Origin: Eledone cirrhosa
Lineage: Eukaryota
Assembly: GCA_964016885.1 (NCBI GenBank)
Contig: OZ024765.1
Location: forward strand, 18,042,001-18,106,000
Direction of reading: 5' to 3'
Length of the DNA: 64,000 bases
The notes under the pieces were generated by a model. That model saw only the letters and a program-made list of their open reading frames with translations. It ran no database searches and was not told where the DNA came from. Of this stretch, positions 18,079 through 63,596 are shown in pieces. Each line of letters opens with the position of its first letter. Within the stretch, counting starts at the first letter, position 1. Both the position numbers and the translations under genes were made by a program.

Positions 18079-18148
18079 GTTTTATCTGATGAAAACACAA
18101 ATATTATTGCATGATGATATTTGTTTTTGAAATGCCCATAATAAAATA
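18079..18148 (+). ncRNA. Type I hammerhead ribozyme motif (AT-rich family)
   Basis: ttttat-CTGATGA-aaacacaaatat...atatttgttttt-GAAA-tg cc c-ATA-ataaaa. Confidence 0.7.
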
Positions 18149-18377
18149 CATGGAACTCTTTTAACCATCTTATATATTATGTATACTCCCAGTCCTACAA
18201 ACTGTAGAGTGCTTCTTATCCGATATCTGCATTGCTTTATTGTACTACAATAAAACTCACCTCCTACATTATATATATATATATATATATATATATATAT
18301 ATATATATATATATATATACATATACATATATATATATATATATATATATATATATATATATATATATATATATATA

Positions 18378-18556
18378 TTTCGTTTCTGAATTTGTTTAGC
18401 AAGATTCTTTATCTGAAAACGTGTGTTGAAACCGATATTGTTATACTTTTGGAGGGTCATGTTGCCAATAAGAAACACACGCACCAGTGCTTTCACTTCA
18501 ATTTATTATAATAAATTTATAAATTTAGCAATTTATAAATTTCCGGTTGGTTGATT
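18378..18556. repeat. Dispersed repeat, second copy at ~40082-40260
   Basis: ttcgtttctgaatttgtttagcaagattc...ccggttggttg is near-identical in both places and follows (TA)n in both. Confidence 0.85.
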
Positions 18557-18711
18557 GGTTCCATAATCAGATGGTTGTTTATAAATTGTCAAAGTTCTTT
18601 CGTCACACATTCTGTGACCTCTTCAGTGACTGGGGATTCTTTTCTTTGTTTTTGTGCCTCTCCTTTGTTCTGTCCTACGCCATTTTGTTTCTGTATATAT
18701 ATATATATATC

Positions 18712-18860
18712 TCTAAGGCGGGTAAATTCCCGAGATCCATGGACGAGTTCTCTCCAGCGGTCTCTGTCCCTCATCGCTGCCATGTCCTGCGTCTCCAATA
18801 GACCAGTGTCTGTCCTTAGGGCATCAACATACGTTAACCTTGGTCTTCCTTTGGGAGCCC
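18712..18860 (-). pseudogene. RTE-clade LINE 3' fragment (ORF C-terminus)
   Basis: Minus strand translates KGRPRLTYVDALRTDTGLLETQDMAAMRDRDRWRELV, the typical RTE GRP..W/DR..WR terminus; paralog at 45932-46177. Confidence 0.8.
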
Positions 18861-19128
18861 CTATATATCTATATATATATATATATATATATATATATAT
18901 ATATATATATATACAGGTGTTTGCATATGTCCATTGAATATTTTTTTTGGGGGTAGCTTATGTTGAAATATTTTCTTAATACTCTCAAAATCGTATATTT
19001 TCCACCAACATTTCCAGTCACCCACGATTTTCTGTTCAGTTGCTCCTCGCCCACACAACAGTGGGGAAATGTCCATGGGTGGGTGGGTGATATTACCCGG
19101 TTTGAGGAACCCTGATCTTAAGTTTTCG

Positions 19129-19400
19129 ATGTTTTGAACGGTACAAAAAATGTTTTGAACGGTACAAAAAATGTTTTGAACGGTACAAAAAATGTTTTGA
19201 ACGGTACAAAAAATGTTTTGAACGGTACAAAAAATGTTTTGGACGGTACAAAAAATGTTTTGAACGGTACAAAAAATGTTTTGAACGGTACAAAAAATGT
19301 TTTGAACGGTACAAAAAATGTTTTGAACGGTACAAAAAATGTTTTGAACGGTACAAAAAATGTTTTGAACGGTACAAAAAATGTTTTGAACGGTACAAAA
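19129..19400. repeat. 21-bp minisatellite (atgttttgaacggtacaaaaa), ~13 copies
   Basis: Near-perfect tandem copies. Confidence 0.97.
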
Positions 19401-19770
19401 AAAAAAAAAGAAGAATATGTTGCATAGCCGAGTTCTTTTTGTTTTTTGCGCTTTCAATTTTAGTTAAACTGTATCATAATCATGGACCCTCCGGTCCAGG
19501 TTGGCACAACTTGCTACTCTGCTTTAGAAGACACATACACAGGTCAACATCACTCACACATTCACACACATATAGACATATATACATATACATGTGTACA
19601 TGCATACAAATATATATATATATATATATATATATATATATGCAAAGTTTTATTTAAATTGTTGGGTTACAACGAGTAAATATTTATAACTGATATAAAA
19701 GCACTCAACAAGTATTTGGAGTATATTTACGATATTAAATAAATGGAAACTATATTTATAAAACCATATT

Positions 19771-19836
19771 TATTTCATTATATATATTTCAGGGATATCA
19801 TATTAACAATATGGTATGCCTTCTTCAGACAAAATA
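19771..19836 (-). ncRNA. Type I hammerhead motif (AT-rich family) inside dispersed element ~19640-19910
   Basis: Minus: tattttgt-CTGAAGA-aggcataccatatt gtt aatatgatatccct-GAAA-tatat-ATA-atgaaata. Confidence 0.7.
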
Positions 19837-59745: not shown

Positions 59746-59749
59746 TGGT

Positions 59750-60955
59750 GGGTGTTAGTGGTGGTGGTGGTGGTGTTAGTGGTTTTGGTGGTGGTGGTGG
59801 TGTTAGTGGTGGTGGTGGTGGTGGTGTTGGTGTGGTGGTGGTGATGGTGGTGGTGTTGGTGTGGTAGTGGTGGTGGTGGTGGTGGTGTTAGTGGTTTTGG
59901 TGGTGGTGGTGGTGTTAGTGGTGGTGGTGGTGGTGGTGGTCGTGGTGGTGATGGTGGTGGTGTTGGTGTGGTAGTGGTGGTGGTGGTGGTGTTAGTGGTG
60001 GTGGTGGTGTGGTGGTGGTGATGGTGGTGGTGTTGGTGTAGTAGTGGTGGTGGTGGTGTTAGTGGTGGTGGTGGTGGTGTTAGTGGTTTTGGTGGTGGTG
60101 GTGGTGTTAGTGGTGGTGGTGGTGGTGGTGGTGGTGGTGGTGGTCGTGGTGGTGATGGTGGTGGTGTTGGTGTGGTAGTGGTGGTGGTGGTGTTAGTGGT
60201 GGTGGTGGTGGTGGTGGTGGTGGTGGTGGTCGTGGTGGTGATGGTGGTGGTGTTGGTGTGGTAGTGGTGGTGGTGGTGTTAGTGGTGGTGGTGGTGGTGG
60301 TGGTGGTGTTAGTGGTTTTGGTGGTGGTGGTTGGGTGGTGATGACGGTGCTACTGGTGGTGGTGGTGTTTGTCGTGGTGGTGGTTGCGGTGTTGCCGCTG
60401 GTGGTGGTCTTTATGGTGATGATGATGATGGTGTTGATGGTAACAACGATGATGATGATGATGATGATGATATTACTGTTGATAGTAATAGCTGCTGCTG
60501 CTGTTAATTTTACTGCTGATGGTGAAGGTGGTGATGTGACTGCTGCTGCTGCTGCTGCCGATTTTACTGCCGATGATGATGATGATGGTGTTACGGTTGT
60601 GGCTGATGATGATGATGATGATGATGATATTGCTGCTGCTGCTCTGCTGCTGCTGTTGTTGACTTTGCTGGTGGTGGTGGTGGTGGTGATGATGGTGATG
60701 GTGATGGTGATGGTGATGATGATGTTGGTGGTGATGGTGATGGTGGTGGTGATGGTGGTGGTGATGGTGGTGATGTTGGTGGTGATGATGATGTTGGTGG
60801 TGATGGTGATGGTGGTGGTGATGATGTTGATGGTGATGGTGATGGTGATGGTGATGATGGTGATGATGATGATGATGATGATGGTGATGGTGGTCGTGGT
60901 GATGAGGATGTTGGTGGTGATGGTGATGGTGATGGTGATGATGGTGATTATGTTG
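59750..60955. repeat. (GGT)n/(GAT)n degenerate tract
   Basis: Direct reading. Confidence 0.9.
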
Positions 60956-61091
60956 ACGGGGCTGCTGATGGTGGTGATGGTGATGGTTGTGTTGCTGCTG
61001 TTGCATGGATTGATGAGTCATACCGGAATGTCTATTAATGAACGCTGGACTGGACACTGGTTGATGGGGCAGAGAAATACCCGGATGTTCA

Positions 61092-62075
61092 CTACTGCAG
61101 CCGCAACAACAACAACAACTACTACTACTACTACTACTACTACTACTACTGCTGCTGCCGCTGCTGCAACTACTACTACTGCAACTACTACTACTACTAC
61201 AGCCGCAACTACTACTACTACTACTACTACTACTACAGCCGCAACTACTACTACTACTACTGCAGCCACAACAACTACTACTACTACTACTACTGCAGCC
61301 ACAACAACTACTACTACTACTACTGCAGCCAAAACAACTACTACTACTACTACTGCAGCCACAACAACTACTACTACTACTGCAGCCACAACAACAACAA
61401 ATACTACTACTACTACTGCAACAACAACAGCTACAGCAACAGTAACAACAACAGTAACAACAACAACAACAGCAGTAACAACAACAACAACAGTAACAAC
61501 AACAACAACAACAGTAACAACAACAACAGTAGCAACAACAACAACAACAACAACAGTAGCAACAACAACAACAGTAACAACAACAGTAGCAACAACAACA
61601 ACAACAGTAACAACAACAACAGTAACAACAACAACAGTAACAACAACAATAACAACAACAACAGTAACAACAACAACAGTAGCAACAACAATAACAACAA
61701 CAACAGTAACAACAACAACAGTAGCAACAACAATAACAACAACAACAGTAGCAACAACAATGACAACAACAACAGTAACAACAACAACAACAACAAAAGT
61801 AACAACAACAACAACAACAGTAACAACAACAACAACAACAGTAGCAACAACAGTAACAATAACAGTAATAACAACAACAACAGTAACAACAACAACAACA
61901 GTAGCAACAACAGTAACAATAACAGTAATAACAACAACAACAGTAACAACAACAACAACAACAGTAGCAACAACAGTAACAATAACAGTAATAACAACAA
62001 CAACAGTAACAACAACAACAACAACAGTAGCAACAACAGTAACAACAACAACAGTAACAACAACAACAACTGCAA
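61092..62075. repeat. (ACT)n then (AAC)n/(AGT) compound tract
   Basis: Direct reading. Confidence 0.95.
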
Positions 62076-62195
62076 CGATATGTCATGCATGCGTATAAAT
62101 ATGTGTGTAGGTATACATGCATCAATGCATGTATGAGTGTGTGTATGAATGTGTGTATGTGTGCATGTGTGTGTGTTATGTATGCCCGTCTGTTT

Positions 62196-63115
62196 GTCCC
62201 CTCGTCAGGACACTCTTGAGTGCTACTGGTAACATGTAACCCAGTACAACCTGTCGCATGGTCGGGTCGTCGGCCATTAAACCGGCAACCCCACCAAGTT
62301 TACTTGGTGAGGAGGGGGTGATTTTGGACACTCTGCAGGACAGAAAAACAAAACCTGACAAAGGGCGGTAGAACTCATAAGAGTCAGCGGACATCCGAAA
62401 GTGTGTAAATATGTATATAGACATGTACATATGTATGTATATGTACATGTATATGTACATGTGTATATGTACATGTGCAGCATCAACATAATCATCATCA
62501 CCATCACCATCATCAGCCTCATCATCACCATCACCATCATCATCATCATCATCCTCAACAGTCTCAGCCCCATCATCATGATGCGTGGGGGACATAGAAA
62601 TAATCGAGCTGGATATCCGATCGCACGGTTAAACGACTGGGAGTGAAGGACCCCTAGCCTTTGTCAGGGCATTCTTCTAGGAGAAGGCAAGTCAGGAAAC
62701 TGGGATAACTCCGATATAAAACCTGCGGCTCAGTAGTTACCGATGATGTTGATCTTTTCTTCTTTTCGGGTTATAGCTACTGTCGCTCAGAGAGTGGGAT
62801 TGGCTCAGTGCACAGTCTTTCCTCACTTTAAACAATATCTTCATGCACAGCCATTGCACGATAGAATTAATTAATTGTTTCTACTTTAGGCACAAGGCCA
62901 GCAATTAACCAGTACATTACTGGTACTTTATTTTATCGACCCCGTAAGGATGAAAGGCAAAGTTAACCTCGGCGGGATTTGAACTCAGAATGATAAGGGC
63001 CGTAACTCAATGCGTCAAAGAATGGCGTCCGACCTTCTAATTAATTAATAATTATTAATAATCGTATATCGTGCAATGGCCATACTCGATAACGAGGGGG
63101 AAGCCATCATGTGTG
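62196..63115 (+). mobile_element. Subfamily-2 RTE-motif retroposon interrupted by a microsatellite (62400-62580) and a SINE (62876-63038)
   Basis: 5' part matches the 45223 family head; 3' part matches 31539-31897. Confidence 0.8.
62876..63038 (-). mobile_element. 5'-truncated Meta-like SINE with apparent TSD aattaattaat
   Basis: Reverse complement of the SINE consensus; the paralog at ~31823 lacks it. Confidence 0.85.
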
Positions 63116-63530
63116 TATGTATGTATTATGTATGTCCGTCTGTTTGTCCCCTTATCTGTATTCACGTATGTCTATATGTATGTCTGTCCGTCCGTCTATA
63201 GACTATACACACACATATATATATATAACACATATACATACATATGTATATATATATATAACACATATACATACATATATATATATATATACACAAATAT
63301 ATATATATATATATATATATATATATATATATATATATATATATATATATATATATATATAAGCAAATAGTTATTTAATTTGTTTGATACTCAACAAATT
63401 TTAATATAACAGATTCGAAGCACCCTACAATATTCTTATATATATATATATATATATATATATATATATATATATATATATATATATACGATATATTAAT
63501 AAATGGAAACTATATTTATAAAACCCAAAT

Positions 63531-63596
63531 TATTTTATTATATATATTTCAAGGGCAACCAAGGAAAATTATGGTGCGCTTTCATCAGATAAAATA
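63531..63596 (-). ncRNA. Type I hammerhead motif (AT-rich family) in element ~63488-63822
   Basis: Minus: tattttat-CTGATGA-aagcgcacc...ggttgccctt-GAAA-tatat-ATA-ataaaata. Confidence 0.75.

Follow-up and report, generated by a model that had tools for sequence, protein, structure and literature searches.

A 64-kb stretch of the Eledone cirrhosa genome (contig OZ024765.1; hereafter the window, with positions counted from its first letter) carries eight type I hammerhead ribozyme motifs. These very likely derive from the pseudo-long-terminal repeats (pLTRs) of autonomous, ~4-kb Hydra-type Penelope-like elements (PLEs), present in the window as truncated copies in (TA)n and likely to cut after an AUA triplet only as dimers. 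The identity of the elements as Hydra-type Penelope-like retrotransposons is held with greater confidence still. An earlier note, made from the letters of the window, had described a non-autonomous, ribozyme-bearing retroelement system, with eight motifs, targeting TA microsatellites. Its motifs, type I fold, covarying stem II, link to PLEs and target were confirmed; its non-autonomous character was not.

Hammerhead motifs, stems and covariation

All eight motifs were found where the note had placed them, with CTGA(T/A)GA cores starting at 18086+, 19828-, 40352+, 43258-, 43334+, 49168-, 49319+ and 63588-. Each comprises a stem I 5' strand, CTGA(T/A)GA, a stem II of 31-36 nt, GAAA, six nucleotides, TA and the stem I 3' strand. 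The six-nucleotide spacer ends in A in every copy, giving the AUA triplet. A type I core (CUGANGA, GAAA, A15.1-U16.1 and an NUH site) is present in 8/8, and the fold is open at stem I. Stem I pairs at 8/8 positions in six copies and at 7/8 in those at 49109-49178 and 49309-49378. Stem II pairs as predicted but in another register, which in all eight motifs consists of 3 bp followed by a C x C/U mismatch and a variable helix. A self-complementary stem III had been overlooked.

A descriptor scan of the window recovered 6/8 motifs, both failures being the copies with a stem I mismatch; 200 block shuffles gave a mean of 0.005 matches (maximum 1). Eighteen genomic relatives, close ones among them, served to train a covariance model, which returned exactly these eight at 62.6-80.9 bits, the next match scoring 18.8. 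Other CTGANGA occurrences (22056+, 21985-, 26900-, 28383+, 28095-/28905+ and the 28-bp satellite at 41437-42240) were without GAAA or stem I, failed the descriptor and were rejected.

The motifs represent not eight separate units but six insertions, which fall into four families: A (40342, 63529), B-type (19769, 49109, 49309), C (43198, 43324) and D (18076). The pairs 43198-/43324+ and 49109-/49309+ are each the two arms of a single inverted insertion, with self-matches of 289 and 364 bp, and both would fold as long hairpins if transcribed through.

Abundance was assessed by exact matching of the pattern CTGANGARN{18,40}TGAAATRYRYATAAT to the 3.0-Gb assembly. This gave 35,489 forward and 35,093 reverse matches (70,582 in all), compared with 0 for the reversed control pattern. 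The density is about one motif per 42 kb; insertions are fewer, since many motifs lie in inverted pairs. On its own, a 34-letter family D piece had 13,437 exact matches. A looser pattern applied to 166 sequences yielded 268 instances (overlapping loci counted twice) and 88 distinct variants.

Covariation was tested on 18 of the 88 variants, picked by hand. In this set 96% of cells were paired, 14 of 21 pairs changed on both sides and 0/500 shuffles reached the observed value, a count that is not a probability since the sequences are related. Slid controls fell to 34-57% pairing. RNAalifold, unaided, gave the same stems I and II, including the mismatch. With one representative from each of ten families, 12/12 core columns were invariant compared with 1/40 upstream and 1/60 downstream, a comparison that is partly circular in that the variants had been gathered with the core pattern. 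Covariation, RNAalifold and the ten-family core together bear out the proposal that RNA structure is conserved across families.

Stem III is an 8-nt palindrome occurring in two compensating forms, AUAUAUAU/AUAUGUAU and AUGCGCAU. It reads ATATATAT, ATATGTAT or ATGCGCAT, all fully self-pairing, in 253/268 instances; the window's family D motif has ATGCCCAT, one letter off the usual ATGCGCAT. The letter before UA was A in 268/268 instances, though the pattern left this position free. Family J, absent from the window, combines different GC-rich stems with an unchanged core, AUA, ATATATAT and C x C mismatch.

Coding elements and the ends of their copies

Same-strand reverse transcriptase (RT)/GIY-YIG frames lie 1-2 kb upstream of the motif in families A, B, C and D, as a search for such linked copies, proposed in the earlier note, revealed. 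Copies of B, C and D share at least 1.5 kb upstream; for family J, a GIY-YIG match was seen in 1/16 loci tested. Twenty loci with RT similarity were picked by hand from at least 150 listed, for long frames or high identity; the unit was found downstream of RT in 17 and somewhere in 19. Three loci have a pLTR-open reading frame (ORF)-pLTR arrangement with hammerheads on both sides, 4166 bp (L123), 3691 bp (L127) and 4091 bp (L129) apart, and in L116 a 743-codon frame lies between two family A ends. Both features of PLE minimal (dimeric) hammerheads, a short palindromic helix III and pLTR location on both sides of the ORF, are thus present. At tandem junctions the 3' end is followed by a short ATATAT, a ~45-nt leader and ATG.

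The window units are 95-99% identical to ORF-linked ends (87-95% for 19642-19936); no ORF piece was found in the 64-kb window. Because the ends match this closely and RT-fetched loci carry the unit, the window units read in these alignments as 5'-truncated copies of the 3' ends of ~4-kb coding elements, with no separate non-autonomous family. Every window family matches such an end, contrary to the non-autonomous system first proposed, and the non-coding tandem monomers without an ORF of their own that mark retrozymes were not what was found. Over their aligned parts, frames shared 41-89% identity with family A. Neither Pfam nor PDB sequence searches of the ORFs gave anything significant, RT and GIY-YIG being identified by motifs, and a similarity search found 31 homologues, 30 unnamed and one with an unrelated name. 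In one locus, L013 (G000:C3:45453000-45462900), an inverted piece of 40 nt connects a family A unit with the truncated ORF of another Hydra-type family, which is 34% identical and has its own 3' end; template switching between families is the likely cause.

RT shares one frame with a C-terminal GIY-YIG in L116, L119, L120, L126 and others. DKT (SDKT) occurs in 6/13 frames, most others being without that region; the CxCX5C linker occurs in 10/13 and CX2-5CxxC in 0/13. RWR, a variant of RWK, was present in both frames matched by the pattern. The GIY-YIG core has one Cys and no CCHH, with CxxC (CxLC) and CxH (CKH/CRH) near the C-terminus. Neptune, our first reading of the clade, was ruled out by DKT, the linker counts and the absence of CCHH. 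The single RT and GIY-YIG frame, DKT, RWK-type motif, CxCX5C, lack of CCHH, near-terminal CxxC and CxH and (TA)n insertion fit the Hydra clade, for which Craig et al. 2021 describe these features along with canonical hammerheads (PMC8557442). The supplement lists Hydra-1_Obim from Octopus bimaculoides and 26 Hydra hammerhead rows, all GUH. Compared by eye, the Hydra-1_Obim protein follows those described here motif by motif.

Distances from predicted cut to TA run formed two modes in each of the seven groups having at least five instances, mainly at 43-52 nt and 131-150 nt, placing two 3' end points ~90 nt apart. The short form is the inverted arm, and therefore the tail is ~90 nt. Both the window units and these bimodal ends at TA runs support the proposed microsatellite targeting, with (TA)n adjoining the units at their 3' ends only, which corrects the earlier note. 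The 5' ends were mapped in 30 family D loci chosen by sequence downstream of the cut alone, some of them two arms of one insertion. One began at the cut, 2 inside the motif and 11 at 107-130 nt upstream of the cut; 9 ended their alignment at 391-405 nt, probably through divergence from the reference used, and 7 elsewhere. As a genomic trace of cleavage, the single locus starting at the cut is indistinguishable from chance. For family A, 12/16 began 81-84 nt upstream of the core, in a set selected by a query starting there. The 5' junctions vary from copy to copy. Because family D 5' ends cluster upstream of the ribozyme, with 1/30 at the cut, uncut RNA would be the usual template, in agreement with the anole Poseidon element, in which hammerhead mutants still inserted.

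Further features were observed near these ends. The tails of all families (e.g. 40455-40500) contain a conserved ACTC...GAGTGCT hairpin, and a similar GCTC...GAGC hairpin occurs in the 5' leader. At tandem junctions (L116:1830-2010, L129:2000-2170) the tail sequence ATCAGTTAT pairs with ATAACTGAT just before ATG. The coral Hydra-2_Amil sequence ends in a similar stretch (PMC8557442 supplement). These hairpins are candidate RT-binding or translation signals. In A, B and C, GTATGT is conserved at 35-50 nt upstream of the core (e.g. 40310-40320), as it is in L123 and L121, with GTAAGT in one L123 pLTR. It looks like a splice donor, with no acceptor established; if used, it would make the hammerhead intronic. 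In three runs of unclassified kind from one sample, searched as contigs against L129, no GT..AG joint was seen among the joints listed and no pile-up of starts or ends, a result that speaks neither for nor against expression.

Predicted cleavage and alternative readings

Closing the 2-bp stem III of the monomer costs 2-3.5 kcal/mol in 8/8 window motifs. With only this stem III, lone copies such as those of the window are probably close to inert. For family J the double hammerhead is the best two-strand fold without constraints; it comes to within 0.6 kcal/mol of the best fold in D and to within 0.9-2.6 kcal/mol in A, C and E. Real dimer-dependent cleavage, weak and in tandem transcripts, is moderately favoured. 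A tandem pLTR-ORF-pLTR transcript would carry a hammerhead on either side of the ORF. The two may pair via the palindromic stem III into a double hammerhead that cuts slowly after AUA, possibly with the element's protein, to give unit-length RNA. Release of such RNA by paired hammerheads has been proposed for PLE hammerheads generally (PMC4209133). Most insertions would be copied from uncut RNA with a 5' end 55-90 nt upstream of the core, probably a transcription start in the pLTR. The element's nuclease would nick (TA)n, and second-strand events may give the tail-less inverted arm.

Several points weigh against this account, beyond the hand-picked covariation set and the partial circularity of core invariance. 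The G10.1-C11.1 pair next to the core is absent from most variants: the first stem II pair is A-U in 12, G.U in 4 and G-C in 2 of the 18, leaving 16/18 without it. This pair is not strictly required. Several listed Hydra hammerheads are also without it (PMC8557442). AUA occurs naturally, yet among the four triplets compared in a viroid hammerhead it was cleaved most slowly (PMC1636495). In families B and G the double hammerhead is less stable than other folds by 14-15 kcal/mol. No frame was seen intact end to end, the 741-aa one of L116 having YRDY for YRDD. The clade was placed from motifs and not from a tree, and the elements, at 3.7-4.2 kb with a 3' untranslated region of 1-2 kb, exceed the <3 kb typical of the Hydra clade (PMC8557442). 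Apart from these points, Rfam gave zero hammerhead matches on three short stretches. On the whole window, no hammerhead was among the 150 of 390 Rfam matches listed, which microsatellite matches dominated.

A less likely reading, to be taken seriously nonetheless, is that the motif is retained as a signal in folded RNA, for protein binding, RT start or template handling, cleavage being negligible or protein-dependent. The non-optimal triplet and first stem II pair are in keeping with this, as are the fixed C x C/U mismatch and the long stem II, neither of which is known to be needed for hammerhead chemistry. Only 1/30 D loci starts at the cut. The anole Poseidon hammerhead, moreover, cut only with protein and was dispensable for insertion, and no reads began at its cut (PMC11167929). 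Invariance of all catalytic core columns and retention of the palindrome by compensating changes count against a mere signal, and are explained directly by a dimer ribozyme.

It is very unlikely that the short units are a self-propagating non-autonomous family, short interspersed nuclear element (SINE)- or retrozyme-like, copied in trans by PLE protein. Clustered 5' ends (12/16 query-selected A instances, 11/30 D loci) would suit such a family. So would L013, whose A unit and foreign ORF fragment indicate that the protein can switch templates. The short units are nevertheless 95-99% identical to ORF-linked ends, their 5' junctions vary among copies, and no head-to-tail arrays of short units were seen in the window, compared with the tandem 150-450 bp repeats of retrozymes (PMC7229834). 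Chance matches in AT-rich low-complexity DNA, which the lack of an Rfam match and the AU-rich stems might suggest, are refuted by the shuffles, the genome counts, covariation and the retention of core, AUA, palindrome and mismatch in family J despite its wholly different GC-rich stems.

If the hammerheads do act as dimers, a speculative extension is that stem III is a pairing code, by which AUAUAUAU/AUAUGUAU copies in their tens of thousands may dimerise and cut one another between loci and families, also within host transcripts, with the AUGCGCAU family now orthogonal. We consider this improbable; if true, the retrotransposon would be running a ribozyme-based network for copy sensing or RNA decay that spans the genome.

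Window features and comparison with known systems

Table 1. Insertions of Hydra-type PLE ends in the window and their hammerheads.
Feature	Position	Strand	Basis
Family D 5'-truncated 3' end (pLTR), Hydra-type PLE, long form	18031..18269	+	95.5% to 3' end of ORF-bearing locus L105
(TA)n after family D unit	18270-18378		TRF
Hammerhead, family D, predicted cut after 18140	18076..18150	+	Covariance model, pair parsing
Family B-type long-form 3' end, terminating in (TA)n 19570-19641	19642..19936	-	87-95% to L107/L109 ends
Hammerhead, B-type, predicted cut after 19779	19769..19838	-	Covariance model, pair parsing
Family A 3' end, long form, (TA)n from 40543	40267..40540	+	95% to L131/L132/L116 ends
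Hammerhead, family A, predicted cut after 40401	40342..40411	+	Covariance model, pair parsing
Family C inverted arm, short 3' end without tail	43152..43296	-	97.9% to L112 end; self-match 43152-43440
Hammerhead, family C short arm, predicted cut after 43208	43198-43268	-	
Family C arm, long 3' end, (TA)n from 43535	43297..43534	+	96-97% to L112/L111 ends
Hammerhead, family C long arm, predicted cut after 43384	43324-43394	+	
Family A stub, last ~48 nt of tail only	48313..48360	+	93.8% to L116 pLTR
Family B inverted arm, short 3' end	49069..49249	-	Self-match, identity to ORF-linked ends
Hammerhead, family B short arm, one stem I mismatch	49109-49178	-	
Family B arm, long 3' end, (TA)n from 49508	49246..49507	+	98-99% to L107/L109 ends
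Hammerhead, family B long arm, one stem I mismatch	49309-49378	+	
Family A arm, short 3' end, (TA)n 63437-63488	63489..63700	-	95% to L132/L131 ends
Hammerhead, family A short arm, predicted cut after 63539	63529-63598	-	
Family A opposite arm, tail-bearing 3' end, starting just downstream of cut site, without hammerhead; (TA)n from 63823	63695..63822	+	

Other sequences were noted in the window. A further hammerhead-like motif of another family lies at 48876-49025 (-), core at 48970, in a short insert between two TA runs. It has GAAA, CCTCTG, a GUA site, a 6-bp stem I and a long stem II mismatched at its first pair, and resembles the listed GUH-type Hydra hammerheads. At 4004 (+), a small insertion holds what looks like a classical minimal PLE hammerhead (CTGATGA, a short stem II and GAAACGTT), with an inverted partial copy near 4310-4348, across a (TA)n(TG)n run. 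Short palindromic inserts with shared inverted ends, resembling miniature inverted-repeat transposable elements, lie in (TA)n at 4351-4462, 19947-20012, 28308-28442, 48489-48617 and 63871-63919. Satellites of 71 bp (x185, 4462-17698), 59 bp (x89, 34223-39455) and 28 bp (x29, 41437-42240) and a degenerate TTAGGG tract (54183-54700) are also present. Two dispersed repeats bear CTGA(T/C)GA without a complete hammerhead, the first at 21957-22134 and 26814-26938, as an inverted pair around a TA run, and the second at 27836-28228, 28730-29305, 32603-33139 and 45358-45934.

The elements resemble the Hydra clade (PMC8557442) in their frame with RT and C-terminal GIY-YIG, DKT, CxCX5C, CxxC/CxH, near-3' hammerhead, (TA)n target and inverted 5'-truncated arms; a non-GC first stem II pair also occurs in listed Hydra hammerheads. 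They differ in the AUA site with U15.2-A16.2, compared with GUH in 26/26 listed Hydra rows, and in an 8-nt loop-free palindrome in place of 3-4 bp and a 1-3 nt loop (PMC8557442). Stem II is 25-36 nt long with the fixed C x C/U mismatch, and the tail is ~90 nt, compared with 30-40 bp in the PLE description (PMC8557442). The hammerhead listed for Hydra-1_Obim (GUU) differs from those found here (PMC8557442).

Metazoan PLE minimal hammerheads (Cervera and De la Pena 2014, PMC4209133) are likewise type I, present in both pLTRs and equipped with a palindromic helix III and long helix II. They too form many covarying families per genome, mostly as solo or opposite-strand copies from truncated elements, and are predicted low-activity dimers. 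They have an unpaired base after A9, a conserved G10.1-C11.1 and a helix I of 4-5 bp, whereas helix I here is AU-rich and 8 bp long; their counts are ~2,000-9,000 per genome, against 70,582 pattern matches here (PMC4209133). Metazoan non-LTR retrozymes (Cervera and De la Pena 2020, PMC7229834) share type I hammerheads, AT-rich repeats of a few hundred bases and great abundance (as many as 120,000 copies in axolotl), but are non-coding tandem arrays making circular RNA, unlike the dispersed ends of coding elements described here. The ELVd (+) viroid hammerhead also cuts naturally after AUA, as a stable monomeric ribozyme in a context unrelated to these elements (PMC1636495).

Already in print are the hammerheads of PLE pseudo-LTRs, their palindromic helix III and their solo copies, both truncated and inverted, as well as the Hydra clade with its (TA)n target. 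The earlier suggestion that the system is uncatalogued accordingly holds for these families only, and not for the clade, the hammerheads, the (TA)n target or an octopus member (PMC8557442). A literature search without Repbase, Dfam or Lunse et al. 2017, whose dimeric PLE variants may include AUA or mismatch types, turned up no account of these families, nor of a Hydra hammerhead of AUA type. In an O. vulgaris repeat paper (PMC13282606), neither hammerhead nor ribozyme occurs (0 instances).

These families extend the known sequence range of such elements, through the AUA site, the fixed stem II mismatch and the ~90-nt tail, and do not define a new kind of element. Hammerhead function in Penelope-like elements is still an open question (PMC8557442). 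The genome provides a natural experiment: its related families, numbering at least ten, have covarying stems, the dimer palindromes come in two compensating forms, and full pLTR-ORF-pLTR copies are present.

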